Of a stretch of DNA of 64,000 nucleotides, positions 898 to 40,426 are shown in pieces. Positions within the stretch are counted from its first letter, which is position 1; each line of letters opens with the position of its first letter. Source of the stretch: Raillietiella orientalis (taxonomy: Eukaryota); assembly GCA_036172245.1 (NCBI GenBank), contig JAYWIR010000090.1, positions 62,001-126,000 of the forward strand, in the 5' to 3' direction. The position numbers and the translations under genes were made by a program. The notes under the pieces were generated by a model that searched no databases, was not told where the DNA came from, and worked only from the letters and a program-made list of their open reading frames with translations.

Positions 898-910
898 GTC
901 TTCCCCTTTT

Positions 911-12113: not shown

Positions 12114-12125
12114 GGACGTGTTTTT
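12114..12125 (+). promoter_or_regulatory. Conserved 5'-terminal motif (G/A)GACGTGTT(T), candidate internal promoter element (example copy)
   Basis: Within about 10 nt of the 5' junction at 5923(-), 9808, 12114, 18030, 27195, 35413, 48143, 53400, 59226, 61532; the function is inferred. Confidence 0.55.
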
Positions 12126-12185
12126 CTTCGCTCTCGTCTCCGTGCTTTCATCCGCTTCATCTTGGCGTCGTACATTTTGACGACG

Positions 12186-17701: not shown

Positions 17702-18101
17702 TCATTGCCCTACCCTCCATAAACTAAATTTGTATTTTCTTTTTACACCCGCGTCCCCATAGGCTCCGGAACATTTTAGGTGCTCATCGTATAAATCCCC
17801 GTGAGTACGGAGCCTAACCAAAAACCCGTTACCCTTCCCTCCAGTTTTTGATTTTTGTTTGTTTCCCCTCATTCCCCCCACGCTGCGAGCGGTTTGTTTA
17901 CCAGGCCTGCGAGCTGGTAATTTTTCTATGTTCTCTGTCGTTCTGTTGGCTGGGGACATTGTCCCTGACCAGTTTATTATTATTAATAAACGCCCCGGCG
18001 TGACCGGCTGATAAATTTCAATCGAGTGCGGACGTGTTTTTCTTCGCTCTCGTCTCCGTGCTTTCATCCGCTTCATCTTGGCGTCGTACATTTTGACGAC
18101 G

Positions 18102-20022
18102 ATGTCGACCCAACTTGAAGCTACTGAAGTTGGAGGAACAGCATCCGGATCTGCAATCGCGAACCGACGGCCGCCTCCACTTCGTCTTTCTCGCCACTGG
18201 AGAGGAGTTTTGCTGACGTTGCTGCCACAGCAGCCGTCAAAGGGAAACCACTCGACGAGTCGGAGTTGCGGGCATACGTAGCCCAAGGCTATAGACCTGC
18301 TCTCCGTTATAAGGTAAGTGGTTTTCCTTCTGCGCGCGACGGGAATCAGTTCAACGATGAACTGACCCGTGTTGGCATGCGGGAGGAGGACCTTCTCGCC
18401 ATTATGCCCGTAAAAGACATGGGCTATTTCAAGGTGCGTTGCAAAGACGCTGCACTTGTGCAACGCTTGCTGCGCACCCCGTTGTCGATCCGTGGCCCGA
18501 AGGTCTTCCCGGCAGCCATGGACGACTCATTTGTGGCGGAGATTTTCGACATCGAGTCGGAAATCTCCGATATTGATATTCGGAACGCGTTGGCGAAATT
18601 CGCCACGGTCCATGCGCTGTGGAGGGTGCGTAGCAACCTCAAGGACTTCCCGTCCATACACAGCGGAGTCGCTGGAGTCCGGCTTACAATGCCGGACCGC
18701 CGTCTGCTGCCCACCCAACTACAGGTGAAAGACACGGTCGTTCACCTGTGGTTCGTGGGCAAAGTAAGAACGTGCGAGCAATGCGGGAAGGAGGGGCATT
18801 GTTTGGATAAATGCCCCTCTGGAAAATGCCGTTATTGCAAACTATCCGGGCACCAATTGAAAAATTGCCCGGACCTTTTGCGAAAAAAGGCAGCCGCGGA
18901 GCCCCATTTTAAAAATCAAAGCGCGGATAAAAAGAAAAAATCTGCGAAAACCCTGGAGACCCCACGGCAGAAATTCCGAAAAAACGCGAGGCGGAATGTC
19001 GCCCCAAAGCAGCAGGAAACCTCGCACGCGAAGCCCTGCGCGCCCCCTCTCGCGGCAGGGGAGCCGCAAAAGAAAGGGTGCGGGGAATCCGGGGCAATGG
19101 TAAGTCCCCCTAGGCGCAATAGCTGTCCTTCGCAAGCACGCCCGGCTCTTTCGGAGTTCGTGCAACCGGCGGGGACGTCAATGGACAACGGCGGTAAGGA
19201 CACTTCCAGTACCGTGAGATCCATTCCTTCACCTCCTGCAGTGGCTGAGAAGCCCAAATCGGGTAAGAAGAGTTGTGCAGTGTCGACTTTGAAAGTCGGC
19301 AAAAAAAAATCCGCGTCGCGATCCAACACCGCGAAAGCGGAGAAAAATCTCACGCCGTCGCAATCGGAGAGCAAGCTCTCGACTGGCGCGGATGCCATGC
19401 CAACGAAGGGATTAAAATCCCTTCCGAAGACAGCGTCCATGACGAGCGTGTCGAAGCCATCCAAAGTGCTCCCGTCCAAAGGCGCGGATGGCTTTAAAGA
19501 TGGCAATGGAGCACAATCTCCATTTACGGCGCCACGCGAAGTGAGGAACCGTAATGAAGTAAAGAAGACTTCAGCAAAGGTCCCTCGTGCAACTGCGCGT
19601 GAGCACGCTGAAAACGCGCGCGCCGGGAAAGCAGCCGTCACCAAAAGCGATGCTAGGAGACGGAAAAAGGCAACAGGACAGCTGTCAATCCAGCAGAACC
19701 TGTCACTACTTCGCGGAAGGCCGAAACCCGATCGAACATGCGCCGGTCGGACTCCGAAATGGATGCCGTTCCGATCACCGAGACGAGGACAACTCGTTCG
19801 AAAGCGTGTGCGCGCTGATCAAAAGTAGGCAGCCAGGCAACTCTAGCCGCGAAGCCACGCGAAGTCTCCACGAAACCCGACGGGGATAAGCCTGGCGTGG
19901 AGGTATTACATGCATGCAGCACGACAGAGGACGGTGGCGACCGTCCCCTCCAGCCAGTCGTGCTGCTCGCCGTCTGCTCGCCGGATAAAGCGAGCAAAAA
20001 GCCGCCACCATCCCAGCAGTAA
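18102..20022 (+). pseudogene. C2 ORF1, frameshifted
   Basis: Main ORF 18266..19828 with 2 knuckles; frameshifts near 18160 and 19655. Confidence 0.87.
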
Positions 20023-23000
20023 TGCGGGGAATCGCGTCTTCTCGTCGTCTGTCCGTAACGTGTTGGAACGTGAACGGACTGCAGAACGACGAGAAGAGGC
20101 GATGAGTAGCCAACGCCCTGCGCCATTTCGACCTCGCGCTCCTGCAGGAGATTCTCGTAATCGCCGACGAGCAGGCAGCCGAAATCGAGGAGCGCGCAGG
20201 CGGAAGGCTACATTGGCGGTGCGGCGGCGCACACACGTGCGGCGTCGCGTTCCTCGTAAGAGGAAAAATGGCGGAAGCGGTGCGTAGTGTTCGTTTCGAT
20301 GACGACGGACGGATAGGCCAGCTTGTCATCAAGTGGTCCGAGTCCATCGATCTCGTCGTTACGAACGTCTACGCGCCGAGTGGCTCTCGCTACCTCGAAG
20401 AAAGAGTAGCTTTCCTTGGTGAGGTGCAGAGCCACTGGCTCAACAACTCCGGTTTCCAAGTGGCGCACCTCGTCGCTGGGGACTTCAACGTCCGCCTGCT
20501 CTCCGACGATTGGAGCCGCCCGAGGGCGCGCGCGCTGCCCCTCGATATGTGCGCGTCCGTGCACGCTGCCAACTTGATGGTCAGCGAACCTGGAATGGAA
20601 AGATCGCTCGATCACGTTTTCCTCGATGAAAACCTGCATTCGCGTGTGGGTAGGAGAGGAAGATTGTTGACTAAGCTTTCTGACCACCACAGGTTGGAGT
20701 TTGAGATCCTTCCGCCAGGCAGGGGGCCTCCGTTGCAAAACTGGAGGATGCAGGCGGATTGGCTTAGCAAACCGGAGGCTGCGGAGCATCTACGAAGATA
20801 CCTTCGAGGCATTGCCATTCAAGAACTTGCGGACTGGGAAGATCTCAAAAGATCTGTCCGCGAGTTCTGCTGCCAATTCCCCTTGCACCGGCTTCCACGC
20901 GGTTTCGGAGAGGGCGTGGGCAACAGTAGAGACTTTCTGCAGGCCCGCACGTTTTCGAGACGCGCCGATGTCGGGCGTCTCGGAGAGAACAAGGCGAGGG
21001 CCGAGCGCCAGGTCTGGCAGTCCGGAGCAGCATGCCTGTTGGACGACAAGGGCCAGGAATGTTCAGCCCCAGCCGAAGTACGCCGCATTGTGAGACGCTA
21101 CTACTCCTCTCTGTACGCGGAATCCCCGACGGAGGATATTCTTTCTGAGATACTCCTGTCTCAGGATGCTCGTGTTGTCGGCGAGGAGGAACGCAAACGT
21201 CTCAACGAGCCCTTCACGGCGGATGAATTTTCGTCCGCAATCGCTGGGCTGAAGAGAAGAAAGGCGCCAGGTAAGGATGGGCTCCCTGCAGAGTTTTATC
21301 AGTGCTTTGCAGTGGAGCTCATTCCCTTGATGCTGAAACTCGCGACGCTGATGAGTGAATCCGGGAATGTCCCTGATTCCTTCCGCTCAGCGAAGGTGCG
21401 TCTCCTGCCGAAAGGCGGAGACTTGCGTCAACTTAACAACTGGCGTTCGATCACCTTGGTGAACTCGGACGTCAAGTTGTTTTCCAAGCTGTGGGTCGCG
21501 CGGTTAGGAAGTATCGCGGAATCTGTGGTGAGCCCGGAACAAACCTACGCGGTTCCGGGACGATCCATGGAGGCGAACATCCTTTTCGCGCGTACATGGA
21601 TGCAGCTGCAGGAAGTTGTGGCGCAGCAAAGCCAGGCTGCTGCGAAAGTCACTGCCGCAGGCAAGAAGAACAGGCGCCGACGGCAGGAGGGAACGCCAGG
21701 TGCCTTGGCGGTCGCGGTCGATCTCCACAAGGCGTTCGACTGCTTAAACCAGAAGCTGCTTTTGGAGCTTATGAAACGCCTTGGGTTCCCGGCGCAACTC
21801 CTGCTGTATTTGCGAGCGTGCTGGAGCCACGCGTCAACCTGCATTACTTTCAGCGGCTGGCGCGTGTATGGCATTCCCGTTCGTAGATGCATCCGACAGG
21901 GCGACAGCTTAAGCCCGTTGCTCTTCAGCATCTTCTTTGAGTTGGTGCTAAGTGCATACAGGCTGACGCTGTCTCACTTGCCAAGCTCCTGCCCGGGAAC
22001 GCCTGCCGTGGCCGTCTACGCTGATGACCTGCTTCTTCAGCTCCCCATGTCCACCCCGGCGTCCAGTGTCGAGGATTTCTTCGACCTGATTCGTCGGGGA
22101 GCGGGCGTGAGCGCGAACAGATAGAAGAGCGTGGTCGTTCCTGTGGGTACGTCGTGGGAGGGGCAGCCCGACTGGATCCGCCTGGGGATCCCCACGGGCG
22201 GGTACTTTAAGTACCGTGGCGTTCCGTTGGGCGCATTCGGCGCAGCCGAAGCGTGGGCGGACTGTCTTCAGAAAGCAGAGTTGGCCATCAGCCCGTTCTT
22301 TAACGGCAAGTTTACCTTGCAGGAACGGGCGACTATTTGGAACACCTTTGTGGCCCTTCTCCTCCGTTCCCTGTTTTTTGTTTTGGACCCCCCCTATGCG
22401 GCAAAACAGCGGGCTAAACGCCTGCTCAGGAACGCTCTCTGAGGTCCGGCGAGATCCAGAATCCGCCTCAAAGATTTGTTTGCTCCGCGTCGGGATGCTG
22501 GTTTAGGTATCTTAGCAATGGAGCGAATCGGACTGCAGGTGCAGTTCCGACTGCTGGCACTGTGTGCCCAGCTATGGACATCCCCCCTGTGTGTGCCAGC
22601 CCGCATTCTCCTGCGGAGATGAGCCGGCAGCGGAGGATTTCTCTCGCTTTTGCCGGGCACTCAATACAGGAAGCGGGGTTTCGGGTTTCCATTGCGGCAG
22701 TTGACCGCACTTCTGGGAGCTCACTCGTGGATCTCCTGCCGCCCAATGACTTTGAAGTTTGGCGGCAGGAGTGTGTGGAATCCTGGACGGCGTTCCAAGG
22801 AATACGCCCTGAAGATCTTCACCCCCTGCGTCAATTTTTTCCACGATCCTTGGAAGAAGTACTGCAGGACGAGGTGAAGTTTTCTACCCTGGCTGCCACG
22901 CCTCTTGCAGCAGCGCTGTCTGCCCTCAGGGCAAGAAACGACAGTGACCAACCGGCGAGCTGGGTGGTTTCCTGCACGATAGCGGGAAAAACCAAAATCC

Positions 23001-23613
23001 TTGGCGCCTGGAAGACGAGTGAGTTGGCGGACGCCGCCACTCCTCGTGTTACTGCAAAGGGACTCCTCCGGTGGGCAGAAGAACTTACTGTAACCCCCGA
23101 AGAAGTTGTAGTCCCTCCACAGTGTATTGACAGTTCGCTGCTCCCCCTTGCTTGGAAACAAGCCGTGCTGCTTTTCGTTCACTGGGGTTTTCAGTGCAAC
23201 GAGCGTTGGCATCGTGACTCCGGGGGACTTGCATCTGCGAATTGCGTTCGGTGCGGATCGCGGAGTCGATTCCGCACCTACTTCTGGACTGCGGTGTCCT
23301 ACAAGGACTGTGGCGTAGGCTGGCAACAGCACTAATGCATCCCGTGGACACCGCAAGAGACTTGCTGCGACGATTCTTCACGCCGAGCGGGCTGTCACTA
23401 AGCGCAAGGATTGCAACCATCGGTTGCATACGAGCGATAGTTTCCGTCCGCCAGGCGTTGGTAATCAACGGACAGCACCAAGAGGTAATCAGCAAAGCAT
23501 CCTTCAACATAGGAGCATCCGCTAGATGGCCTCATTTGACAGAGGAGACAAAAAGGAATCTCGCCGCAATACACCGCCGGTTTACACACCCTAAGCAGCG
23601 GCCAACGCGGTGA
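20022..23613 (+). pseudogene. C2 ORF2 (APE-RT-CCHC), disrupted
   Basis: ORFs 20268..22124 (GDFN, LDH, SDH, YADD), 22131..22442, 22562..23335, 23242..23613. Confidence 0.92.
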
Positions 23614-23896
23614 TCATTGCCCTACCCTCCATAAACTAATTTTGTATTTTCTTTTCACACCCGCGTCCCCATAGGCTCCGGAACATTTTAGGTGCTCATC
23701 GTTTAAGTCCCCGTGAGTACGGAGCCTAACCAAAAACCCTTGACCCTTCCCTCCAGTTTTTGATTTTTGTTTGTTTCCCCTCATTCCCCCCACGCTGCGA
23801 GCGGTTTGTTTACCAGGTCTGCGTGCCGGGAATTTTTCTATGTTCTCTGTCGTTCTGTTGGTTGCAGACATTGTCCCTGACCAGTTTATTATTATT

Positions 23897-23926
23897 AATA
23901 AACGCCCCGGCGTGACCGGGTGATAA
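23897..23926 (+). other. Conserved 3'-terminal AATAAA + CCCGG-N5-CCGGG hairpin (example copy)
   Basis: Present at all 11 visible 3' ends (variant form in family A; AATGAA in H). Confidence 0.8.
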
Positions 23927-24268
23927 ATTTCAATATCCGTCTGCTAACAGGTGAGCCAGAAACACAAGAAAACGCGATGAACGAGTTGTGTGCCGCCATG
24001 CGTGCGCGAAACTTGTTCGCGGGTGAGAAGGGAATGGTCCGAAGCATCGACCACGTCTTTCTCGACGCTGACCTCTGTTCACGGTCGGCCAACGGGAGAG
24101 GGTTGCGTCGACGTTGTCGGACCATTCCCGGTTAATTTTCGAGATGCGGCCTCGCGACAAGGGACCGCCATCCAGGAATTGGCGTCTGCCGGGGGACTGG
24201 ACGCGACTCTCAGGTGCGAAGGAACACCTTCGCGAATACCTGAGAGGCGTCACGCTCCGGAATCTCCA
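23927..24268 (+). mobile_element. B1 continuation (rest of the APE domain), then interrupted by D
   Basis: Resumes (D)FNIRLLTGEPETQE..IDHVFLD, homologous to B2 29493-29835. Confidence 0.9.
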
Positions 24269-27185
24269 TTGAAACCCGGTTGCGCCGGGTCGTTTATTCT
24301 CACGAATAAACCTATACAATCTGTGACTAAACCAGTAGTCCAGCCACGCCCTGGAAAGATATAGCTTGCCGGGCTACCGGTGCGCAGACCAGCGCGGTCG
24401 ACCTCGGCCGCAGAAGGGAGGGGGAACGAAACAAAAAGAAAACAAAAAATAAACAAAAATCAGGGAGGGAGCGGGAAGGGATCACAGTCTGCTGGGAGGG
24501 TCCGTCATCCTCTGGAGGATGCCGGCAAGCTGTTTCTGCTTGTGTGGTTCCAGATGGGGCCATCGCGTCGCCATCCTGAAGAAACGGGCGGCATACACGT
24601 TGGCATCCCTGTCGCTGGATCCTTTCGTCGCTTTGCTCCATGCCACGACGATCCCGCGTAGGCAGCACAGGGCTGCAAGCGACGCCGCTGGAGGCAGGGC
24701 GTCACAGACGAAGAGGGGGCGCAAAGCGTCTCTGGGGTTGCCCCTGGGGATCCCCAGGGCTGCGGCAAAGCGTTCCCACAAGGGACGGAGGGCAACACAA
24801 TCCACTAACAGGTGGGGGAGGTATTCCCTCTCCCCGCACCTGACACAATTAGGGTTGACACCCGTCCGCGTCCAGTGGTGTCGGCGGGCATTGCAAGGAA
24901 GCCCCCAATGCAACACCAGCAGTGCCGACTGTTGCCACTTCATGGGGAGGGTGCGCGAGTCCATGAGCACCGGGGGCCACTCGAGATGTCCCTCTGGAAC
25001 ATCCAGTAGCTCTCCCCAGCGCAACAGTCCATTTGAGGTGGTCCTCAAGGTCGCAGCGTTGGTGAGCTGACCCGTTCTCCAATCCCCGATCTTCTTTGCC
25101 CTGCTGGCGATCTTGAAAGTAACCTCCCATTGTGCCGCGACGTCGCTGCCCAGATGTTCCCGTAGGGTAGGCAGTACCGCAGCAAGGGAGGTTCTTTGTG
25201 CCCACGCTCTCCTTCGGGGATTCTCGATGATTTCTCGGAGCGTGCGGCGGGCATGCGGCCCGAACAGAGCTATTCTCTCGTGTTGCGGGCTCTGCTCCTG
25301 AATCATCGCCCACGTGCGGACGGTTTCCTGCAACCAGGCAGGACCGTTCGCGGGGCGTACGAGGATCCGCGCCGAGTTGTTCTTCACGAGCTTGGCCGCC
25401 CTCCGAAGTTGAAGTCCGCAGTGAAAGATGAGGCTTCGGAGTGCAAAGTAGGACGAGAGTCCCGCATTGCCGGTGGCCCGCTCGACGAGGAGACGTGCAG
25501 GGAGGCACCAAGGGGTGCACCAATTTTCTGCCATAAAGGCAACAACTCGGAACTGGAGCTGTAGCTCCAGCCGCTCCAACGTCAGGAGGCCCAGACCACC
25601 ATCCCGACGAGGAGCGCACAAGTCCGAAAGACGGACTAGGGGCCTCCCTCTGCCCCAAAGGGCGATCCTCAGGGGGTCCTTCGTCCTCTTCTTTGACTCC
25701 GCTGAGGGGGAGGAAAAAAAAAGCAAGGGGCGAAGGAGGGGGGCCGCAAACGCGTTCCACGCCACGGCCCGTTCATGCAGGAAGAACCTGCCGTCCTGGA
25801 ACGGGCCGATCGCCTCCTGAGCCTTCTGAAGGCAGCCGGACCACGCTTCCGTAGGGGAGTAATCCTCCAACGGCACACCAAGGTACTTGAAGTACCTCAC
25901 CGTGGAGATCCCCAAACGGACCCAGTCCTGCTGCCCTCCCCACGCCGCTCCGACTGGCATTACGGACGACTTCGCCCTGTTCACCGTCAGTCCTGTTCCA
26001 CGACTCAGCAGGTCGAAGAAGTCCTCGACCGCCGAGGCCGGGTTAAACATAGGCAGCAGCAGCAGAAGATCGTCCGCGTACGCTGAAACCGCACGCGTAC
26101 CGGGGCAATCGCACGGCAGGTGCGCCAGAGTCTCCCTGTACGCTCTCAGCACCAATTCGAAAAAGGCGCTAAAGAGCAGGGGGCTCAGGCTGTTTCCCTG
26201 CCGTATGCCGCGTCGCACCTGCACGGAGTACACGGTTCGCCCGCTGAAAAGAGCATTAATGAGCGCGTCGCGCCAGCTGGAGCGCAGGTAGGCCAACAAA
26301 GAGGCCGGGAAACCCGAGCGTTTTAGAAGCTCCAGCAGGAGATTCTGGTCGACGCTGTCGAATGCTTTACGCATGTCGACAGCGACCGCAAGGGCTCCCT
26401 TCCCCACCCGACCGTTCCGTCTCCCGCCAACGGACGCAGCGGAATTCCGACTGCTCAATAAGCCCCTTCCTTGTTGGAGCTCTAACCATGTGGAAGCGTG
26501 GAACAGGTTCGCCTCCATACTTCGCCCGGAAACAGCATATGTCTGTTCCGTGCTGATGAAGATGTTGACGACCCGTCCCAAGCGCTCTGCCCACGGCTTG
26601 GCTAGCAACCTGGCGTCCGCATTCACTATTGTGATGGGACGCCGGTTGTTCATGCTCCTTAGGTCTCCTCCCTTCGGGAGGAGCCGCACCTTTGCTGAAC
26701 GAAACGAGATGGGAACGTCACCTGTCTCGCGTATCAGCAAGGTGAGTTGATGTACCAGGGGCGTTAGCTCAGCCGCGAAAGTTTGATAAAACTCCGCAGG
26801 CAGGCCGTCCTCCCCTGGAGCCTTTCGCCTCTTGAGCTTTCCGATGGCCGAGATGATCTCGCCCATCGTGAAAGGCTCGTCGAGGTTTCTTTTCTCCTCC
26901 TCCCCGATCGCTGGAGCACCTTCCGGAAGCAGGAGTCGTGAGACAGCCTGCTCCGGAGGCGCCCTGGCGTACAGGAAGGAGTAAAATTTCCTCACTATCC
27001 CGCGTTTCTGAGGGGGAACCGAGTGCTCCCGGCCCTGGCCGTCCAGCAAGCTGGCCGACCCGGATTGCTAGGCTTGCCTCTCGGCTCCCGCTCGATACTC
27101 TGCTAACCTGCGCATGTCGGGGGTTCTCGCGTAACTTCGGGCCCGAAGATAGCACCTTTCGTTACGCGGCCCCTCCCCAAATCCC
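24269..27185 (-). mobile_element. LINE copy D, 3' segment (RT-CCHC, 3' UTR), antisense in B1
   Basis: 855-aa ORF 24482..27049 with DMRKAFD, YADD, CVRCGEREYLPHLLVDC; ends AATAAACGACCCGGCGCAACCGGGTTTCAA. Confidence 0.93.
24482..27049 (-). pseudogene. D ORF2 RT and C-terminal domains (longest uninterrupted frame in the window, but separated from its APE by B2)
   Basis: RT motifs intact; the upstream part lies at 34666-35404. Confidence 0.9.
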
Positions 27186-29915
27186 TTGGCGAGCGGACGT
27201 GTTTTTCCTGAGCTCCCGAGCGAGTCGACAGGAAGCGGTTTTTTCTTTGTGTGTGTTCGTGTGGAACATCGTTGGTGTCCGATGGCAGCGATGCCTGAGG
27301 ACACCACGATGGACGTAGGTGGGGGGAGGCTTGCCCACCTCCACAGCCTGCAGAATCAGGGGCGTCCTCCCCGGAATCATCCCTGGCAACGCCGAGGACG
27401 TGGAGCGCCATGGTTTCCGCGCCGAGCGCGGAAACCTTGGCAGAGCAAGCGGCCTACAGGGCCTCCGGATATAAACCATCTCTGGTTTATAAGGTAGGAC
27501 CCCTGTTTGATGGTCGCACCGCCCGGGCTTTTAATAGGGCACTGCAGGATTTCCCTGTACGCGAGGAGGATCTTGACGGCCTCTCCGTACCAGCGGGGGG
27601 CAGCGCGTGGAGGTCGTCTGCAAAGACGTAGCCTTAGCACAGCGACTCATTAACACCCCGCTGAATGTGGATGGCCGGAAGATCCTTCCGGTTTGCATGG
27701 ACCGCTCCGTAGTGGTCCATCTAACCGGCATTACGAACCGCATGACGCGATCTGCGGTGAGTAATGCACTAAGTAAGTACGGTGAGATACACACGTTGTG
27801 GCCAAAGCCTACCATTTTCGATGGCTTTAATAGCCATTTCGGAGGCCAGGCCGCTGCGCGTGTAACAGTTAATGAGGGCAGTGGCTTGCCCCACAAACTG
27901 GAGGTCGCAAAGGAATCCGTCGACCTCTGCTACGTGGGGAAACATTGCTATTTTGGATACTCCGATGCAGTAGGGCACTTGCGCAAGCGGTGCCCGAATA
28001 TCGAGTGCCACATGTGCGGAGTTAAGGGACACGTACCTCGTGTGTGCCCCAAACGCCCCACCCCGGTGCAAACTGCTGCCAAAAAGACGCAGGCCAAAAA
28101 AGGAAAAAAGGTCGAAAGACCTTCTCGGGAAACTGGCCGGCCCCAGTCGCCATCTCCTGTTCCTCCCACCCAGACGTCGGAGGAAAAACCCGCTGAAGAC
28201 GCGGGAGAGGAAGAAGGATGGAAGCTGGTAAAGGCCAGAAAAGAAAAAAAAGTTCCCCCCGTGGAACCCGCGAGAGCGAAGAGAGAAAAGAGAGCGAAAC
28301 CGAATAAACCCGGTCCGCGCTCGAAAACTCTTCGCGAGTGCACGGTGGCACTCGAACGGATTGCCGTCCCCGAGGCTGCCACCCGGGGCGACGAGCCTCC
28401 CCTCGCCGTTTCCGCCGCGCCCGAGGTTCGCGACGACGAACCCTCTGTTTGCACAGAGGGTGAGCCGCGCGAAGCGCGCGCCGAAAGCGAGGACGCGGCG
28501 TTCGCGCAGGCGGAGGAGGAGCTCGCGGCCACGCTGGCCGAGCGTGAGAACCCCTCACGCAAGGCCGTGCGAAGGCCGGCTCCGCCGAAGAAGGCCCCCG
28601 CAGGTGAGTGCGGCCTGGGGGCCGGAAGTGCATTTTCCTCGTCGGAGGTACCCCCCCGGAAGTCGGGACGCAAGTCCCAAAAGCCGAGGAGGCGCCTCCC
28701 CTCCACCAGCGAGGAGGAGAAGCAGGAAGCCGACGGCAGCGTGGGAATCCCGGAGGGGGAATCCCACGCGCGGAAGTCGTCGAGCAGGAAACCCCCATGG
28801 AGTAGGGTGAGCAGGGGGGCGAAGTCCTCCTTGAAGGCGCGGACCCTGTACAGCCCACCCGTATGGAGGAGGGCCAACAGGTAGGCGCGACCCCACCGGA
28901 GGGTGACCCGCCCGACGCGCCGTCACCGATGGAGCAGGGGGACCAGGTGCTCGAGGCACCTGTCCCTCCTGCCCCAACTAGCGTCCCGCCCCAACAAGTG
29001 GCGGACGCCGCAGAGCCGATTTCCCAGGAATAACACCTGGGCTCGCCTGTCGCCGTCGAATCCGCGTGGCCAGTTGGAACGTCAACGGGCTGCGCGACGA
29101 GGGCAACAGACGAGATACGGCCGACACCCTGCGTGAGTTCGACCAGGCCCTGCTGCAGGAGATCCACGTGATCACCTCGGCAGACGTCCAGGAGATCGAG
29201 ACAATCGCGGGGGGTCGACTGTATTGGCGATGCGGCGCCCGCAACACCTGTGGGGTCGCGTTTTTCGTGAAGCCGGCCATCGACGCTGCCGTGAAGGGCG
29301 TACTCTTCGATGACGACGGTCGGGTCGGTCAGCTCACTCTCAGCTGGTCCGACTCGATCGGATTGATCGTCACGAACGTGTACGCCCCAAGCGGGAAAGA
29401 AGGATACAGCCACCGTACCAAGTTGCTGGAGACCCTGAAGCGCGACTGGCTGGCCGATACGAACGTACGGAAGGCACACCTGATAGCTGGGGACTTTAAT
29501 CTCCGTCTGCTGTCAGGTGAGCCCGAAGCACAAGAACGCACGGCCAACAAGTTGTGCGCTGACATGCGCACGCGCAACTTGTTGGTGGACGCAGAGGGAA
29601 TGGACCGCAGCAGCGACCACTTCTTCCTGGATGTCGACCTGTGCTCGCGGGTCGGCAAACGATGAAAAGTTGCGTCGACGCTGTCGGACCATTCCAGGTT
29701 AATCGCCGAGGTATGCCCGCGCGATAAAGGACCCCAGGCCAGGGCGTGGAGGTCGCTTGAGGACTGGAAGAGGCTCTCAGGTGCGAAGGAACACCTTCGC
29801 GAATTGCTGAGAGGCGTCACCCTCCGCAGTCTCGAAGATTGGGACATTTTCAAGGCCTCGGTCCGCGAGTTCTGCGAAGAGTTCCCCCTGCACCGCCTGC
29901 CCTTCGGATTTGGGG
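27186..29915 (+). mobile_element. LINE family B, copy B2, 5' segment (ORF1, APE), antisense in D
   Basis: Starts TTGGCGAGCGGACGTGTTTTT; ORFs 27607..28884 and 29066..29665; TSD CCCCAAAT(C/T)CC at 27175-27185 and 34666-34676. Confidence 0.92.
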
Positions 29916-31731
29916 TTATCACCCGAGTACGCCCGGGGTGTTTATTAATAAACTCTACATGCGTGGTAGAAGGCCCCACCACTGCCGTAAACACAGGACC
30001 TGTCGGGACACCGGGACGCAGCCCGGCGTGGCACTCCCCGACAGCGAAAGGGGATGAGGGGAAAAACAAAGAGAAAAATAAAGAAATAAAAAAACAAAAA
30101 GAGTTTGGAGGGCAGGGTAGGGATCACTGATCGCTGTGAGGAGGGCTATCCTTCGAAGAAAGCCCTCGAGGTCTCTCCGCATATCTCCCAGCTGGGGCCA
30201 TCCGGCAGCTCTCCGCAAGAAGCCTAGGGCATACGGGATGACATCCCTCGCCTGTGGACCCACTCTTTCGTTGTTGGCGTCGCTCCATGCAGCCACGATG
30301 CCACGGACGCAGCACAAGGCTGCCCTGGCTGCGGCTGGCTGCAGTGCGTCCTTCACGAAGAGGGGCCGAAGAACGTCTCTGGGATTGCTGCCTGTAGGGA
30401 GCCCGAGGGTCGTCCCGAACCGCTTCCAAAGGGGTCGGAGGGCAGCACAATCCACAATAAGGTGGGGAAGCGAATTCCGCTCCCCGCACCTGGCACACGC
30501 AGGATCCACAGCTGCCCTCGTCCAGTGGAAGCGGCGCGCGTTGCAGGGTAGACCCCAGTGCAACAAAAGCAACGCCGACTCTTGCCACTTAAGGGGCAGG
30601 ATCCTGGATTCCTTCAGTACCGGGGGCCACTTTAGCACATCCGTAGGGATGGCGAGCAGCTCGCCCCATCTTAATAATCCTCGCGGCTGGACGCTCGGGG
30701 TCGTGGCGTCGGCCAGTTCTCCTGTTGTCCAGCCGCTCAACTTCTCGTGTCCCTCGATGCAGCAGGAGACTTGCCACCTTGGTGTCCGGCTGCTGTGAAG
30801 TGCCCTCCTCAGGAAGGGCAGCGCCGTAGCTAGGCAGGTCGTCTCTGCCCACGTGCATCTTGCTGGACTATCCAGGAGATTCCGCAGCGGGCGTAGGGGC
30901 TGCATCGGAGACGATTCCAAGTTTTGTGGCTCCTCTGGTTAACCGCTGCCCACGTTCCAATATTCTCCTCCAGCCAGGCGGGGGAGTTGGCGGGGCAGCA
31001 AACCATCCAGCTGTTCTCCTTGGCCAATGTTGCCATGCGCCCGAGCAGTAGGCCGCATCTTCGCATCTTCCAGCCACGGCTCAGAAGAAAAGACGCGAGT
31101 CCATCGCTCCGGGACTCACGGCTGGAAAGGAGGCGGGCCGAAGTGCACCAAGGGGTGCTCCACATCTTCGCTGCGATGGCGTGGGTTCGCCACCGCAGCT
31201 GCTTCTGCACGCGCTCCAGCGTCAGGAGGCCAAGACCGCCGTCCCGACGCGGAGCGCACAAGTCCTTCAGAGGGTCTCGGGAACTCCCCTTGCTTCAAAG
31301 GGCGATACGGAGGAGGTCCTTCGTCCTCTTCTTCGATTCCACGGTGGGGAGGCAAACAAAAAGCAAGGGGAGGAGGATGGGGGCCGCATAGGGGTTCCAA
31401 ACCGCGGCCCGTTCCGGCAAGTGAAACTTGCCTTCCAGGAACGGGCCGATCGCTGTCTCGACTTTTTGGAGGCAGCTGGACCACGCTTCCGCAGGTAAGT
31501 AGTCCCCCAACGGCACACCAAGGTACTTGAAGCACCTCGCCGTGGGGATCCCCAGACGTAACCAGACCTGCTGCCCTGCCCACGCCGCACCTATTGGCAC
31601 AACCGACGACTTCGCCTTGTTAACCTGCAGTCCGGTCCCGCGGCTGAGCAGATCGAAGAAGTCTCCGACCGACTTTGCCGGGGTGGACATTGGCAACAAG
31701 AGCAGAAGATCGTCGGCGTACGCTGCAACGG
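29916..31731 (-). mobile_element. 5'-truncated B-family-like copy G, antisense inside B2
   Basis: Begins just upstream of YADD; ORFs 31295..31759, 30830..31261, 29955..30920 resemble B2 ORF2; ends AATAAACACCCCGGGCGTACTCGGGTGATAA; degenerate TSD CGGATTT at 29905 and 31732. Confidence 0.9.
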
Positions 31732-34665
31732 CGGATTTTGAAAGGGGGCTGGGAACCATAGGGCCTATTTACAGACCCGTCGGTACGAGAGGACCCCCAA
31801 TGTCGGTCTCCTGGAAGAATATCGTGCCGGGGCCGAGCGCTAAGCCTGGCAATCCAGGTCGCCAGCTTGCTGGACGACCAGGGCCGGGGGTGATCGGCCC
31901 CACCTGCGATCAGGCACCTCGTGCGCCATTACTATTCCTCCCTCTACGCTAGGGCACCCATAGAGCGGGACGCATCGCGACTCCTGCTTCCGGACGGAGC
32001 CCTGGCAATAGGGGAGGAGGAGAGGATCAGCCTCGACGAGCCTTTTTCTACCGGTGAAATTCTCGCCGGTATTAAAAGGCTCAAGAGGCGTAAGGCGCCA
32101 GGGGAGGACAGCCTGCCTGCAGAATTTTTTCAATGCTTCGCGACAGAGCTGGTCCCCCTGGTGCTCCAGTTGACCGGGCTGATCCGAGACGAAGGCGACG
32201 TTCCGGCCTCGTTTCGGTCAGCCCGCGTGAGGCTCTTCCCTAAGCGAGGAGACCTGAGATCCTTAGGCAATTGGCGTCCGATGACAATTGTGAATACGGA
32301 CGCCCAGCTGGTCGCTGGACTGTGGGCTTCGCGTCTAGGACAGGTGGCAGACTTCATAATTAGACCGGAGCAGACATACGCTGTTCCCGGGCGAAGTATG
32401 GATGCCAACCTGTTCTTCGGGAGCACATGGTTCCATGTGCAGCGCTGCCTGAATGAAACTGGCGGAAAGATTGGCAACCCCTCTTTGGGGCCGCCAGCTG
32501 AACTGGGAATGGACACCCGGGCTGGGAAGGGGGCCCTAGCGATCGCGGTCGATCTCCATAAGGCGTTCGACTGCGAGGACCAGGAGCTACTGTTGGAGCT
32601 CCTGGGTCGCATGAGCTTTCCACCCTCCCTTCTCTCCTTCCTGCGCTCCTGCTGGCCCAACGGCATCGTTAACATCTGCTTTTCCAGCCAACAGGTGTAC
32701 GGCGTGCCGGTGCGGCGGGGCATACGGCAGGGTGATAGCCTCAGTCCCCTGCTCTTTAGCACCTACTTTGAGTTGGTGCTGAGAGCGTACAGGGTGACTT
32801 TGGCTGCCCTGCCCAGCTCGTTTCCCGGCACGCCCGCCGTAGCAGCATACGCCGACGACCTTCTGCTCATGTTGCCCATGTCCGTCCCAGCAGCCGCAGT
32901 CGAGGATTTCTTCGACCTGCTAAGTCGTGGGACTGGACTTCGGGTAAACAAGGAGAAGTCGTCGGTCGTACCGGTGGGTGCGACGTGGGTCGGACGGCCT
33001 GACTGGATCCGCTTGGGGATTGCCGCGGCCAGGTACCTGAAGTACCTGGGTGTCCCGTTGGGGGATTTCTGCCTCGCAGAAGCCTGGTCAGGTCGTCTCC
33101 AGAAGGTAGAGTTGGCAATCGGCCCGTTCCTGGAAGGCAAGTTCCTTCTGCCGGAACGGGCCGCGGTGTGGAACGCGTTCGCGGCTCCCATCCACCGCCC
33201 CCTGCTTTTTGTTTGCCGTGTCCCCCGTGACATTAAAAAGAGGACCAAGGACCTACTCCGCATCGCCCTCTGGGGCAGCGGGTGGCCTCGTGTGCCTCTA
33301 GATGACTCATGCGCTCCTCGCCGGAAGGCGTTCTCGGCCTCCTGACTCTGGAGCGCCTGGACATACAGCTGCGATGGCGCACCTTCGCCATCGCAGCAAA
33401 GTCATGGAGCACCCTTCTGTGCGTTCCGGCCCGACTCCTCGCCAGCCGTGTGTCCAGGACGCAAGGACTCGCGTCGTACCTTCTGTGCTCTGGCAGGAAG
33501 GTCAGAAGATGCGGCCTTCTCCTTGGGCGCATGGAAGCCCTGGTGAGAGACAACGGCTGGACGGTATGGAGCCCCACCAAATCCTCCGCCTGGCTGGAGG
33601 AATCCGTTGCGACGTGGGCGAAGCTGAACCTCCAGACTTCCCCGGACTGGAACCGCCTGCGATTCGGCCCCAACGCCCGCTCCACACTGCGGACTACTCT
33701 GGAGTGTCCCGCCAGGAGCACGTGGGAGGAGACTACCCCTCTAGCTTCGACCCTGCCCTTCCTACGAAGGGCTTTAACCAGCGGCCGCAAGCTAAAGTGG
33801 CAAGTCTCCTGCCGAATCGCAGGAAAGGAAAAGAAGATGAGCGGTTGGACCATGGGAGAACTGGCAGATGCCACGACCCCGAGTGCCCTCCCGCGTGGGC
33901 TTCGTAGATGGGGCGAGCTGCTCGACATCCCGATGGATGACCTGAAGTGGCCTTCAATATTAATCGGATCCAGGATTCTCCCCCTTAAGTGGCAAGAGTC
34001 GGCACTGCTACTGTTGCACTGGGGTCTTCCCTGCAACGCGCGCCGCTTCCACTGGACGCGGGGAAGTGTAAGGCCTGAGTGTGCCAGGTGTGGGAGCGAG
34101 AATTGCTCCCCCACCTACTTGTTGACTGTGTTGCCCTCCGACCCCTGTGGGAACGGTTCGAGACGACCCTCGGGCTCCCAATGGGCAGCGCGCCCAGAGA
34201 CGTTCTTCGGCCTTTCTTAGTGCGGGACGCCTTGCAGCCCGCCGCAGCCCTTGCAGCCCTCTGCTGCACCCGGGGCATCGTGGCGGCCTGGAGCGACATT
34301 CGCGACGAAGGAGTGGATGCCAACGCGAGGGATGTCATCCCGTATGCGGTCTGCTTCATGCGGAGAGCTGCGAGATGGCCCATCTGGGCAGCATGAAAAT
34401 GGACCTGGAGGGCATCCTGCGAAGGATGGGCCCTACTCCCAGTAGATTGTGATCCCTTTCCCTCCCTCCAAACTCTTTTTGTTTTTTTTTTCATATCTTT
34501 ATTTTTCTTTTTGTTTTGATCCCTATCCCCCTCCACTGCCGAGGAGCGCCGGGCTGCGTCCCGGCGTCTTGGCAGGTCCGGCGTTGTGTGGCCGATAGTG
34601 GGGCCTCGTACCACGTCTATGTAGAGTTGTTTTCAATAAACGCCCCAGGAGTACCCTCGTGAAAA
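31732..34665 (+). mobile_element. B2 3' segment (RT-CCHC, 3' UTR)
   Basis: Resumes at the GF codons where B2 was broken; ORFs 31921..33345 (YADD), 33309..34220, 34079..34396; ends AATAAACGCCCCAGGAGTACCCTCGTGAAAA. Confidence 0.9.
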
Positions 34666-35404
34666 CCCCAAATTCCGCAGGTAGGCGATGCAGAGGGAAC
34701 TGGTAGCAGAACTCCTGGACCGACCGCTTGAAGCGGTCCCAGTCCTGAAGTGTCTGTATCCTGAAGCCCCGAATGAACGCGCGAAGGTGTTCCGCCGCGT
34801 CGGGAAACTTCAGCCAGTCCCCTGGCAGACGCCACGCTGACGAGAAGGGGCCCCTGTCGCGCGGATGGATCTCGAGAACTAGCGGGCGATTTTCGGACAG
34901 CTCACACGGTAACTTGCGGCGCCTGTCCACGCGACGGCGAAGGTGCTCGTCAAGAAACACGTGGTCGATGCTGTCTTTTATCCAAGGTGCACTGGCCAAC
35001 AAATTACAGGTGTGCACCGCTATGCACACCTCGTTGACCAGGTCACGCTCCGGATTCTGCCCATCTGGTTTCAGGCAAACGTTGAAATCTCCTGCAACCA
35101 GATGGGCATTCCGCACGCCTCCTTTGGTCAGCCAGTCGCGCCGGAGGGCAAGGAAAAACTCTTTCCTCGCCCTCCTGTTCATCAGATCAGCGCCACTCGG
35201 TGCGTACACGTTCGTGACGATCAGATCGATCGAGTAGGACCACCTGAGAGTCAGCTGGCCGACACGACCGTGATCGTCGAACCGCACGTCCCGAGTTGCG
35301 GCCTCGACGGCTGGCCGAAGCAAGTAGGCGATACCGCAACTTTTCAGTTTTTCACACCTATACCATAGCTGCCCTCCGGAGATCCGTTCGATCTCTGGCG
35401 CTCG
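34666..35404 (-). mobile_element. D upstream segment (APE domain), interrupted by E2
   Basis: ORF 34523..35323: NVYAP, GDFN, IDH ... FPLHRLPAEFG; joins 27185 across the B2 TSD. Confidence 0.9.
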
Positions 35405-36767
35405 TACAGTGCAGACGTGTTTCCGCGTCTATCAGCGCCAACGATCGGGCAACCTTGTGCCTGCGTTTTCGCTCGCACTTGTGTGTTCCTGTGCAATCTG
35501 CCAAGTAGCATAGTGCAACATGGCCAGTAAACAGGATAGTGTGGAGGAGCAAGCCACTGGATGCACTTCAGCTGCACTTGAAGTGGCCGCATCCGCCGTA
35601 ATGGTTTCCTGGCCCCCGGTGAGGAGTTACGCCGCCGTTACCTCCCAAAGACCAGGACCCTGTGATGCGGAGTTCCAGGCATATGTGTCATCAGGATACA
35701 TGCCTGCACTCCGCTATAAGGTCAGTGGGCCTCTTAACGGGAGAATCGGTCGTGAGCTCAATGATGAGCTCGTCCGGATCGGCGTTCGCGAGAAGGAACT
35801 CCTTGCCATAATGTCTGCTGGCAGGATGGAATATACGAAGATTCGGTGCAAGAACGCAGCACTTGTGCAGCGCTTTCTCCGTACGCCGTTGACCATCAAT
35901 GGCAAGGAAGTCCTACCTACCGCGATGGACGACTCTTTTGTCGTTGAATTGTACGACATCGATCCCGAAATCTCCGACCGCGATGTCGTAAGTGTGCTGG
36001 CGAAGTTTGCCACCGTGCACGCTCTGTGGAGGAGGCCAAATCCTTTAAAGGATTTCCCCTCTGTCCACATTGGACAAGCCTTTGCGCGGATCACCGTCAC
36101 GAACAGGCGTGTTGTGCCTGAGCAGCTGCAGTTGAACGGCACGGTCGTTCACCTGTGGTTCATAAGCCAGACTCGTGGGTGCGAGCAGTGCAAAAGAGAT
36201 GGGCATCAAATTAAAGAGTGCCCCTCTCCAAGATGCCGCTATTGCAAAGATTCGGGGCACAAAATCAAAAAGTGACCGGTACTTGCAAGAAAAAAAGGGG
36301 CCGCAGCGGAAATTCGTCGGGTCCAAGAGACCACTGCACGAAAAGCCGCAGCAGAAATAAAAAACGTCGTACGCAAAAACTCGGAAAAAACAACGAGGGA
36401 TCCGCGGTTGAAAAGAAAGCATCCCCACCCGCAACGTCCCGAAAGGAGGAAGTCACTGCGGGGAAGCCAATTAAAAAGTGGCGCGAGGGTTTGACGCGTG
36501 CCGTGCCCTCCCTCGCTGCCGAACTCGCAGGCACCTCGCCGAACCGGGAACCAGGAAATCTCCGTAACACCCTGGAGGGAAAGAAAGGAAAACAGGAAGA
36601 TCGCAACAGTGCGAAGACTTCTTGCCCCGTTCCGTTGTCCCTTCCGAGTTCCGGACAGCCCCACTGCAGCGCAGGCCCTTCTGCAAAGGCTACGAAAGCC
36701 TTAAAAAGCAGCGTCGCGACGAGGAAAAGCACGCTGCATGCAGTCGGCTCATCGCCGACTCGGCAGG
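35405..36767 (+). mobile_element. LINE family E, copy E2, 5' segment, antisense in D
   Basis: ACAGTGCAGACGTGTTTCC start; ORF1 35520..36275 with 2 knuckles. Confidence 0.92.
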
Positions 36768-36906
36768 TTTCCCCAAGTCCCACAAGGGGTAGGATAAATT
36801 TATTTTTCGAAAATTTTTCTACAAAAGCATTCACACTACAGTCTCATTCTTACAATTGGCACTGTCTTTACCACTCTGAAGTCCATGGGTTCACAAGTTC
36901 TGCACT

Positions 36907-39900
36907 AATGGTGGGTTTCCTTCTGTTTGGTCCCGGGCGTCGTCTTCTACCCTCTTCAGGATGAATCGGTATGTCCAGGCTTGGCTTTTCCCACAGTTTC
37001 TAATGCCGATTTCCCTCTTCAGGAGCCCTTATAGGATCTCCATCGGTGGTGCGACTCTTCTGGCTTTCCTCATTTTCCACCACCGCGCAAGTATGGCGGT
37101 GATGAAGAGGGCGATGGTCGTCCTCACCATGGGATTGTAACAAAGAACATCACCATCTCCCTGGAACATCCCGGCGAGGATCTCCATTAAGGGCCTGGTG
37201 GTGAGTCCGATGATCCATTTCAGGATCAGCCAGTCATGCAGCAATGTGGGACACGTAAAGACGTGAAGTCTCGTGTCGTTGTCTCCACATGCTGTGCAGT
37301 CTCGATCTTCCCGTCTTCCGGTGTAGTGCTGCAATCGGGACCCACTCTGGATTCCTCCATGATATAACATCTGGAGGTCCTCCCGGGTGCCCGGCGGAAG
37401 GTCACTCCTCCAGAGCGTCGTGCCAATCGCTAGCAGGTTGATCCGGTCACTCCCGCAGCGATCGGCGGCTTCCTGGAAGGGACTGATGTCACGGTCTTCT
37501 TCCCGAATTAATCTTCAGAGGTTTGTTTTGAATACCCTGGACCACGCAAAGTCATTGTGGTTGATCCAGACCTCGCGGGTGATGTGGGTAAAACTTGATA
37601 ACATCATCTCTATATACCTAAGTATACGAGTGTGATGTAGGTACCCTCCTCGTTTCCACTCCTGGATTCGTTGAAGGGTAACTCTGGACCGCTTGTGGAA
37701 CCAGTTTCTCGTGACAGGGAGCATCCAAGGAATCACCAGGATGGACTCGTCCTGCCAGAGTTCCCTACTTCTCGGCACGATCTTAATTTTGTGCTTTCGC
37801 ACCAGCCGTTGCTTCCTCGTCCAGGTTGGGTCGATGTTTTTCCATTCGCCTGCTCAGCCTAGCAGCGCAGTCATCAGGCCTTTCGAGTAGTTCAACGACA
37901 ACGCGGAGGACCTGTGCGTTGCATACGGCCAGTCATCATAGTGAGTGGTAATGTCTAGGATTTTTGCTTATCTATGATTTCTATGGAGTGTGCAAGCGAC
38001 TTCATCCCGGAACCGCCTTCTTCCCTGGGACGACACAGGGGTTTCAGTCTTACTCTTGGACGATAGTGGCCCCAGAGTGTTTTTCTTTGCAGCTTGTCGA
38101 ACTCCCTCGTGGTGTACTTGTTCATCTTCGCAAAGCCCGCCCCGGAAAGAACTTTTAAAAGGAGTACTCCGTTCCATATGTTGGCCTTTCGCTTCATTCC
38201 AAGGTCCGTTCGGGTGTACTTGGCTGCTTCCTTGGCCGTTTTCCCTAGGATCTCGGTCCACAGTAGCTTCGACGCGGAGACGTCGCCAATGTAGACACCC
38301 GGGTAATTGGCCTTGTTCACCGTCCGGAATCCTGTCCTCGTTTGAGCTGAGAGATCGAGGATTCCAACGGGCAAGAGCTGGCTTTTCTGGGCGTTGATCT
38401 CTAGACCAAGGCCTTGATCCATCAGGTCTACCACATCCAGAAACGCCCGTTGATTTCTATCTCCCTTGATAAAGAAGAGTAGATCATCAGCGTATGCCAG
38501 ATGGGTAAGACGCTGGCCATCGATTGCTATGCCTTGGAGTCATCCGCTCTTCTCGATAATGGACGACAACGCCTCCATGTAGATGACGAACAGCATCGGA
38601 CTTAGCGAATCGCCCTGCCGGACTCCCCGTTCCATCCGGATTGCTGCCGTCTTCTGGCCGTTTATTTTGATTCGGCAGTACTGGTTCTAGAGCACCACCC
38701 TCACGAAGTTGCTGAAGTGTTCCGGAAGGGCTAGCTTCTCCAGAACCTTCAGCAGCATCCCATGGTCGATGGAGTCGAAAGCCTTCTCCATGTCAGTGAA
38801 CACCAGCACCAGATTCTCGCCGACGTATCGGCTGAGTCCGACGGTGGCCTGGGCACACTTGACATTGTCCGACATGTGACGTCCAGGAACTGCACACGTT
38901 TGGACCGGAGAGATGAGCTTCGACATGACCCTGCCTAAGCGGTTGGACCAGATCTTCGCCAACCACTTGGCATCGGAGTTCAGGATTGCGATTGGCCTTT
39001 ATTGAGCGATCTGGGTTGGGTCGCCTCCTTTCGGCAACAATCTCATCCTCCTCTCGTAGAAGGATTCAGGTAGTCTGCCTTCTTCACGGATGCAGAGGGT
39101 TAACTGGTGGAACAAGGGCATGTAGGCATACAGGTACCGACGATAGTGCGTGATGGGTACACTGTCAGGGTCCTCCGCCACATCCTGCGCAGTTTTTCAG
39201 AAGCAGTCTTGACCTCGTCTTCGGAGAATTCCTTCTCCAGTCAGTTCCGCTGGATGTCGTCGGTCCTCTTCTCGAGGTAGCTCAGAAAGGCCTGTTGACT
39301 AAAGCGACAGAGATGTTGTCGCCTAAAGTGTTTCGTGTAATGCCTTTGAAAGGCATTCACGATGTCCTCAGACGACTGTCGCTTTTGACCGTCGTACTGG
39401 ATGCAGAAGATATCTGTTGCCAGATTTCTCTTCTCCAGCACACCGACTTCCCCTTTTATGTTCTTGAAGACGTACCGACTCTCGTACTGATCGAAGTACT
39501 TTGAGAGTGAGCGGTCTTGGATGTTTAGCTCCCGGTACGCCTCCTGCCTCAAGCGCCTATCCTCGAATTGCATATTTGCAAACAGGAGTATCCTGTGTTT
39601 CAAGCTGTACCAGTCGGTGACTCTTCTGATTTTTGTGGTTCTCAGAATCGTCTCCAGGACCTCCTGATGTCCAGGATGTGTCTCGAACCAGGAGGACATG
39701 CTGATAAGCGCCGCCCTGGTGCCTTGCCTCCGCCAAGGATTCTCCGTTCTTAGGGAAAACCGCACCAGGGGGTGATCGGATACCGTGGTCATAATGTCTC
39801 GAAAACCCTGAATGCGATTCCCAAGTTCGGTGCTGTGCAGGACGTGATCGATCGGCTTGTGACTTGCAGTTCGCCACACCAGTCCGAACTCGTCGGATAA

Positions 39901-40413
39901 CCGCCGATACGCCGTCCTTCCTCTGGCGTCTTGTGAGTGAGTGATCTCATCCAATATGTTGAGATCGCCAGCAACAATCACGACGTCCTTGGGGGCAAAC
40001 TTTTTAAGGAGTGCTCCATGCAGCGCCTCCACACAACGATGTTTCAGGCTGTGCGGCCCGTACACGTTCAGCAGGATGAGGTGAACAGTAGCGGACCAGG
40101 CCAATCGCACGCCGATGATTCGTCCGGGTTGGGGACAGAACACTTCCAGAATACTGGGGGCCAAGTTGTTCTTCTTAAGGACCGCCACGCCCTGCATGTT
40201 CCGTTCTCTCTCGCTGACGAACATCTGCCCGTTGAATCGCCGTTTTATTTGCTGACTAATCTCTAGACCCATCTTGTGGGTCTCCTGCAAACACACTATG
40301 TCTTGTTGTGCGATGGTCCGCACAATCCTTTTTCTTTTTCCCTGGTCGACCATACCGTTTACATTCCAGGAGGCGATGTTCAGCCTCCTGGCGGTCGATA
40401 GGGAAGGGGCCAT
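36907..40413 (-). pseudogene. A2 ORF2 (APE-RT-CCHC), disrupted
   Basis: ORFs 39241..40518, 38687..38962, 37955..38434, 37515..37802, 37029..37370. Confidence 0.9.
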
Positions 40414-40426
40414 AAAAGGGAAAGAC

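Follow-up and report, generated by a model that had tools for sequence, protein, structure and literature searches.

The DNA described here is a stretch of 64,000 nucleotides (64 kb) of Raillietiella orientalis (GenBank assembly GCA_036172245.1, contig JAYWIR010000090.1, positions 62,001 to 126,000 of the forward strand), referred to below as the window, which consists of a pile of retrotransposons without long terminal repeats (non-LTR elements), the so-called long interspersed nuclear elements (LINEs), nested in each other. All of the mapped stretches derive from LINEs, and the guanine plus cytosine (G+C) content ranges from 53 to 63% across 2-kb intervals. The present report deals with the site at which one of these families, the B family (copies B1, B2 and G), occurs in the second open reading frame (ORF2) of other LINEs, at codons reading G-F-G. 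This site is one of at least four lineage-specific sites of the window, all of them located within one 600-bp stretch of ORF2 running from the endonuclease (EN) domain to the linker. Nesting reaches five levels: M2/H3 holds B1, B1 holds D, D holds B2, and B2 holds G.

The elements are LINEs of the apurinic/apyrimidinic endonuclease (APE) type, in which ORF2 carries EN followed by a reverse transcriptase (RT). With ORFs read from stop to stop in the standard code and domains scored against the Pfam cut-offs, Exo_endo_phos (PF03372) and RVT_1 (PF00078) both exceed their cut-offs in ORFs of the window, e.g., jointly in one ORF (20106-22124), as well as in the ORFs of B2, with E values of 1.2e-9 and 7e-18, respectively. 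The zf-RVT domain (PF13966) reaches only 15-23 bits, below its cut-off of 27.5, and the zf-CCHC knuckle of ORF1 is weak (12-14 bits against a cut-off of 20.8). A full element of ~5.7 kb comprises a 5' terminus, ORF1, ORF2 (EN, linker, RT and a Cys-rich C-terminal domain) and a 3' untranslated region (UTR), and this set, with its weak CCHC knuckle, appears to be L1-like as judged from the domains. The 5' start ..GCGGACGTGTTT is common to all full-length copies. AATAAA, then a short G+C hairpin and lastly TGA(A/T)AA close the 3' UTR, which is devoid of a long poly(A). The eight element 3' ends compared read TGAAAA, TGATAA, TTTCAA or TGACAA, with a longest A stretch of 4-5, and AATAAA occurs ~25 nt ahead of each of them. 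The hairpin is a predicted structure, none of its five predicted pairs showing covariation; its loops vary with the lineage, the loop CGCAA being common to D and M1. Other hallmarks of LINEs consist of the absence of terminal repeats, the 5' truncation of G, M2 and D, the conserved 3' termini and the occurrence of target-site duplications.

The B-family site at the G-F-G codons

Element B2 (27186-34665, plus strand) lies antisense within D, which is borne by the minus strand, and both copies of the 11-bp target-site duplication originally noted for this insertion were found (Table 1). The 3' end of B2, ...CGTGAAAA, is directly next to GGAATTTGGGG of D, just as the 3' end of G, ...GGGTGATAA (minus strand, from 29916), is directly next to GGATTTGGGG of B2. 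In an alignment of 15 host pieces built with MAFFT, the columns of which give the junction positions used throughout, the last host base corresponds to column 811 both for B2 in D and for G in B2. The claims that G sits antisense in B2 at the same codons, and that the two 3' junctions adjoin equivalent host sequence, thus hold to the base.

A third use of the site had been proposed at the 5' end of B1, which begins with TTGGCGAG at 9799, right after the host fragment H3. The GGGATTCGGCG of H3 begins at column 801, the same column as the downstream duplication copy of D, and the equivalence of the position is confirmed, but the third host is a mere 179-bp fragment and the 3' junction of B1 falls outside the window. 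B1 and B2 are 80% identical over 2.3 kb. The B1 copy found at 59217-61524 belongs to a segmental duplication with 99.4% identity and does not count as an additional insertion event.

The flank expected on B-family copies is carried by B1, B2 and G (3/3 in the window) in the form GG(A/G)(A/T)TT(T/C)GG. The motif GGRWTTYGGSG occurs six times for 1.07 occurrences expected, a number that 0 of 100 shuffles reach, and all six occurrences belong to one homologous site of ORF2. Nucleotide comparisons with blastn give the same picture: 29306-31734 matches 35281-32834 at 73% over 2467 nt, which corresponds to the EN of the host followed by the 3' end of the insert, colinear in both cases, and the host sequence past the insert (31733-33370) matches 27184-25557 at 71%. 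G itself is 76% identical to B2 over 32834-34744.

As to the flanks of G, the left copy GGATTTGGGG (29906-29915) lies at the 3' end of the insert, and the right copy GGATTTTGAA (31733-31742) is degenerate, 3 of its 10 bases being different. This mismatch may have arisen by mutation, from filler sequence at the 5' junction or from a 3' flank that was templated. In public sequencing data, 9% of the words sampled from the window occur in one DNA run (X1), and no RNA run was found; of the X1 contigs, 693 could be mapped, 442 of them being less than 90% alike, and 496 loose ends were recorded. An uninterrupted B-like copy of X1 reads GGATTCGGCG at the duplication site of G. Among the joints listed, one X1 contig skips 29911-31742 and corresponds to a B-like copy reading GGATTCGGCGAGGGGGC through the site without G, and two B-like copies read through the place of D in B1 without D.

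The kinship and the independence of these insertions rely on a maximum likelihood tree with bootstrap, built from the 3' third of nine copies (2037 columns), and on the divergence of hosts and inserts. In the tree, B2 and G are split from the other seven sequences with 100% bootstrap, at 76.5% identity, and the grouping of G with B, the failure of which had been named as a possible refutation, is therefore well established. The hosts at this site share 60-68% (D and B2), 63.7% (D and H3) and 60.2% (B2 and H3) identity, compared with 76-80% for the inserts. Since a copied composite would give equal divergence, hosts that are more diverged than their inserts point to separate events, as also follows from the position of G inside B2, itself inside D. 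Because G is a B-family copy located inside the B-family element B2, the self-insertion is real, and the view that the family attacks its own kind is upheld.

Other lineages, their sites and the mosaic element D

The site specificity claimed for the B family is not only supported as an interpretation but extends, according to the same rule, to four lineages. Site 2 is located 27 codons upstream of the B-family site and site 4 57 codons downstream (Table 1), and the duplication of the E family at site 1 measures 8-9 bp (ATTTCAAT). The other groups of the tree, namely (D,M1), ((A,Z),M2) and (E1,E2), are each supported at 100%, and the groups correspond exactly to the insertion sites. Nine distinct 3' junctions occur in the window once segmental duplicates are counted a single time. 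Eight of them belong to lineages with two events, and all eight match their sister copy in both column and strand, the ninth, from a distant family X, having no sister. By our own calculation, the odds that two insertions into a 5.7-kb element agree exactly by chance in both position and strand are ~1 in 11,400, and those of four such coincidences ~6e-17. At site 2 the two hosts are 52.5% identical and the two inserts 72.3%, at site 4 the corresponding values are 58.1% and 68.2%, and at both sites the hosts come from different lineages. The insertion of D at the G-F-G site of B1 was also considered and ruled out, since D occupies a site of its own, located 80 nt upstream. Directly documented here are the junctions and duplications, the shared columns, the pairing of each family with its site, and the fact that the events took place independently.

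Element D consists of parts with distinct affinities, which were compared over 24269-27185 plus 34666-35404 for D, 55285-59037 for Z and 43864-47592 for M1. The EN and RT core of D is 79-90% identical to Z at the nucleotide level and is the sister of Z with 100% and 99% support, whereas its last 1.6 kb (C-terminal third and 3' UTR) is the sister of M1 with 65-74% identity and 100% support. The informative sites, which first unite D with Z, unite it with M1 past a switch that lies within the RT region, in columns 1800-2250, and the scan of these sites found no D=M1 patch inside EN. D occupies site 2 like M1, whereas Z, with a similar EN, occupies site 4. This use of sites hints, as far as the sequences go, that the site is not determined by EN alone. 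The EN domains of D and Z are 77-81% identical at the protein level, which leaves room for a changed specificity of EN.

With respect to the history of the window, large segmental duplications relate 5922-14581 to 55342-64000 (99.4% identity), 1-6670 to 41324-34666 in inverted orientation (93%), and 12099-18022 to 18015-23934 (96%, E1/E2). Copy A changes from a D-like flank to Z-like sequence in the first bases of homology, around 5922-5935. Z is flanked by H3 and M2, which share a strand. The copy nearest to H3 is Z, of the A family (68%), the family into which M2 also falls, and the two fragments may represent one element that lost ~640 bp on the insertion of Z.

All full-length copies, whatever their lineage, carry a conserved motif G(C/A)(G/A)GACGTGTT at a distance of 5-10 nt inwards of their 5' ends (on the plus strand at 9806, 12112, 18028, 27193, 35411, 53398, 59224 and 61530 and on the minus strand at 5916), and this motif is possibly tied to the start of transcription. 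At three places the 5' starts (..GC(A/G)GACGTGTT) of full-length plus-strand elements adjoin the truncated 5' ends of minus-strand elements, and these head-on abutments may be the 5' junctions of more nested insertions with 3' junctions beyond the window. Family X, with an EN and an RT of its own, occurs at 785-3331 (plus) and 37994-40530 (minus), with 26-35% protein identity to the other elements, and its 3' side adjoins an antisense fragment of ORF1 (F, 4381-5823, and F', 35431-36964, respectively).

Table 1. Position of the B-family elements, of their hosts and of the other LINEs and insertion sites in the window (^, junction; columns refer to the host alignment).
Feature	Position	Strand or orientation	Description
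Left copy of the B2 target-site duplication	27175-27185		CCCCAAATCCC; in D sense GGGATTTGGGG; columns 801-811
Right copy of the B2 target-site duplication	34666-34676		CCCCAAATTCC
B2, 5' part	27186-29915	+	5' terminus TTGGCGAGCGGACGTGTTT; 80% identical to B1
B2 ORF1	27577-28884	+	weak CCHC knuckle, below cut-off
B2 EN	28982-29665, running on to the G-F-G codons	+	PF03372
B2's own target	29906-29915	+	GGATTTGGGG, codons G-F-G; adjoins G 3' end
G	29916-31734	-	5'-truncated B-family copy, antisense in B2; C-terminal part of ORF2 and 3' UTR, end ...AATAAACACCCCGGGCGTACTCGGGTGATAA
B2, 3' part	31735-34665	+	degenerate duplication copy (GG)ATTTTGAA first, then RT 31894-33345 (PF00078), C-terminal domain, 3' UTR end ...AATAAACGCCCCAGGAGTACCCTCGTGAAAA
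H3	9620-9798	-	179-bp host fragment, site 3 (GGGATTCGGCG) to site 4; B1 5' end on one side, A 3' end on the other
B1, 5' part	9799-12106	+	interrupted at GDFN codons by E1/E2; 80.4% identical to B2
B1, resumed	23927-24268	+	from ATTTCAAT duplication copy to ...GAATCTCCA, where D 3' end starts
Empty site 3 in A	6660-6670	+	GGGATTTGGGG
Empty site 3 in Z	56078-56088		same site as in A
D, upstream part	34666-35404	-	EN, 5'-truncated near EN residue 22 (tblastn); 84% identical to Z EN
D, downstream part	24269-27185	-	linker, RT, C-terminal domain, 3' end ...CCGGGTTTCAA; 861-aa ORF with PF00078; antisense in B1, site 2
E1	~12107-18014	+	full-length, sense in B1; tandem with E2 (block 12107-23926), 96% identical to each other
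E2	~18023-23926	+	full-length, sense in B1
K1	43139-43863	+	EN fragment of E-like host, end ...GAGCTCGA at site 2
M1	43864-48137	-	D-family copy, 3' end ...CCGGGTGAAAA antisense in K1, site 2; sister of D, 100%
K2	48139-51221	+	E-like host with ORF1 and EN, end ...GCCGAAGT at site 4
M2	51222-53403	-	5'-truncated A-family copy, 3' end ...AGGGTGACAA antisense in K2, site 4; groups with A/Z, 100%
Z	53404-59037	+	full-length A-family copy, 3' end ...CCGGGTGAAAA adjoins H3' at site 4
H3'	59038-59216		counterpart of H3 next to Z
A	5922-9619		99.4% duplicate of Z
Site 1	columns 383-390	sense	GA(T/C)TT(T/C)AAT, GDFN codons of EN; E1, E2 in B1, ATTTCAAT before, between and after
Site 2	column 731	antisense	CTC(C/G)A^; D in B1, M1 in K1
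Site 3	column 811	antisense	GG(A/G)(A/T)TT(T/C)GG(G/C)G^, G-F-G codons at EN end; B2 in D, G in B2, B1 (5' junction only) in H3
Site 4	column 980	antisense	..CAGGT^ / ..GAAGT^; A/Z in H3, M2 in K2
Head-on 5' abutment M1/K2	~48133-48141
Head-on 5' abutment M2/Z	53403/53404
Head-on 5' abutment D/F'	~35405-35411

Probable mode of integration into ORF2 and possible reading of the site

The most likely route by which these LINEs integrate is target-primed reverse transcription, at base-exact sites that are specific to each lineage and lie in the ORF2 of other LINEs, including those of their own family. The positions of the nicks and the reverse transcription step itself are proposed here by analogy with the established behaviour of APE-type LINEs, and the part of the element that reads the site is likewise a proposal. 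For the B family, the sense strand of the host would be nicked just after GG(A/G)(A/T)TT(T/C)GG(G/C)G (GGATTTGGGG in B2), at the G-F-G codons, and the freed 3' OH would serve as a primer on the element RNA, which would be copied starting at its exact 3' end. Priming from the 3' OH of the host sense strand would result in an antisense insert. A second nick located 10-11 bp away would then create the target-site duplication. Three other lineages would act in a similar way at the three other sites of the same 600-bp stretch, and the repeated use of sites lying in coding codons would build up a Russian-doll nesting. Provided that the target codons stay intact in active copies, as may be assumed, every copy would offer the same target. 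Insertion at such sites spares the genes of the host organism and disables the copy that serves as a target.

Several observations weigh against this interpretation. Each lineage is represented by only two or three events, all from one window; E1 and E2 share one host, and their tandem could stem from an unequal exchange. Duplications can be checked for B2 (11 bp), E (8-9 bp) and G (degenerate) only, past their 5' junctions the sequence does not go back to the same host in D, M1, M2 and Z, and segmental duplication and recombination blur some of the histories in the region. In addition, the targets at sites 2 and 4 are alike in just 6-7 of 10 bases between the two hosts, and a simple sequence-reading nuclease is thus maybe not the whole story. 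As regards the sequencing run X1, a joint of a D-like copy that skips B2 together with one duplication copy (among the joints listed) is based on a shorter side of only 28 letters, and probably stems from the paralogue A/Z, which is uninterrupted, and not from an empty allele.

The question of what reads the site admits a refinement of target-primed integration, in which the site is set by a 3' module made of the C-terminal domain of ORF2 and the matching hairpin of the 3' UTR, or in which elements are mobilised in trans by the lineage owning that 3' end. This refinement is tenable but tentative. The mosaic D, which combines a Z-type EN/RT core with the 3' third and the site of M1, speaks in its favour, as do the lineage-specific hairpin loops with the CGCAA loop that D and M1 have in common. 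However, the argument depends on a single mosaic copy, the 5' part of which may have undergone conversion, with a Z-like copy as donor, subsequent to the insertion of D, exchange of DNA being evident in this region, and the protein divergence between the EN domains of D and Z noted above would also accommodate a change in the specificity of EN itself. A broader proposal, according to which a guild of at least four LINE lineages shares out base-exact sites of ORF2 (GDFN, L-E/D-W, G-F-G and linker), the choice of the site residing in a swappable 3' module and not in EN, is still more doubtful and can be offered as a speculation.

A less likely explanation is an RNA-guided homing, in which the tail of a read-through transcript, consisting of antisense LINE sequence, would pair with a new copy and set the priming point, the site being inherited with the location of the master element rather than with a protein. 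The exact position of the junctions despite a merely moderate conservation of the targets would fit such a guide, and so would the mosaic D, in which the site goes with the 3' end of the element, and the duplication copies of G, of which the 3'-side copy CCCCAAATCC resembles the flanks of B2 and the 5'-side copy is off at 3 of 10 bases. Conversely, the AATAAA preceding all of the 3' ends by ~25 nt suggests that transcripts should stop at the end of the element, and no lineage-specific identity or complementarity links the element ends to their own targets: when the last 450 nt of each element were compared with the four targets, matches of 6-10 nt occurred on and off the diagonal with no lineage pattern. 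A guide located inside the 3' UTR was rejected as unlikely for the same reason, such matches being found everywhere. Finally, it is very improbable that the repeated junctions are copies of one ancestral composite, multiplied through segmental duplication or gene conversion, or that they stem from an assembly artefact, in spite of the large duplications of the window (99.4, 93 and 96%), one of which includes the B1 copy at 59217, since G in B2 and B2 in D are not copies of each other, the two hosts of a pair come from different families, their divergence exceeding that of the paired inserts by 8-20 points, and the duplications, 5' truncations and exact 3' ends are marks of retrotransposition.

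Comparison with known LINEs

In protein searches, which gave 33 and 13 matches, the sole close match is an unnamed protein of 619 amino acids (P0001) with 66% identity, the rest ranging from 21 to 29%, and the closest named proteins in the ranking are LINE-1 proteins of plants with 23-28% identity. A scan of metagenomes with an alignment of six C-terminal domains matched 93 stretches, none of them related, and a scan with P0001 yielded seven loci (L001-L007) with 22-61% identity over short segments, among which no useful relative occurred and the contig of P0001 was absent.

Depending on the feature considered, the elements can be likened to different groups of site-specific LINEs. R1, TRAS and SART, as portrayed in the available passages of the literature, occupy one exact position in one orientation of a conserved multicopy target (rDNA or telomeric repeats) and depend on a stringent recognition of the 3' UTR, including in SART1, and the specificity of LINEs of this type is reported to reside in the EN domain (passages of PMC1919474). 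The lineages of the window resemble them by an exact position and a single orientation per lineage. They differ by their target, which is the coding sequence of LINEs, and by the mosaic D, which hints that EN is not the deciding part and amounts to a natural experiment as to the part by which APE-type LINEs recognise their target. If true, the choice of the site by a 3' module would be a second way for APE-type LINEs to achieve target specificity. In LINEs of the Tx1 group, the fixed target is another mobile element, an unrelated DNA transposon. The targets found here are, in contrast, homologous LINEs, including members of the own family, and the retrotransposons disable their relatives and themselves while avoiding the genes of the host organism.

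With respect to nesting, the behaviour of the elements resembles that of Zepp from Coccomyxa subellipsoidea C-169 and of ZeppL-1_cRei from Chlamydomonas, to which they are likened by analogy of behaviour and not by sequence. Both are described, in passages of the corresponding reports, as L1-type LINEs found almost solely in nested clusters, which arise by insertion into existing copies and are taken as centromeric, with one cluster per chromosome. Clusters of copies nested in each other similarly occur here, over five levels in this window, and the G+C content given for Zepp (61%) falls within the range of the 2-kb intervals. Zepp and L1-1_CR end in (A)n according to Table 1 of PMC3472496, a poly(A) 3' repeat that is absent here, where TGA(A/T)AA follows the hairpin. 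In addition, the passages on Chlamydomonas report a single ZeppL family, as opposed to the four or more diverged lineages that coexist in the window and use a separate site each. The passages devoted to Zepp and ZeppL in PMC3446292, PMC8226300, PMC11005252, the version 6 genome preprint and the CENH3 preprint mention neither exact sites nor sites of multiple lineages.

In several green algae, nested Zepp-type clusters are the mark of the presumed centromeres, and the passages in question state just that the elements target existing copies. The junctions of the present window suggest how such a targeting could work, by means of a few exact sites in the codons of ORF2, one for each lineage, and this targeting may explain the build-up of self-targeting LINE clusters. 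If the guild of lineages and its 3' module were to prove true, they would provide a mechanism for the seeding and growth of Zepp-like, possibly centromeric, nested clusters.

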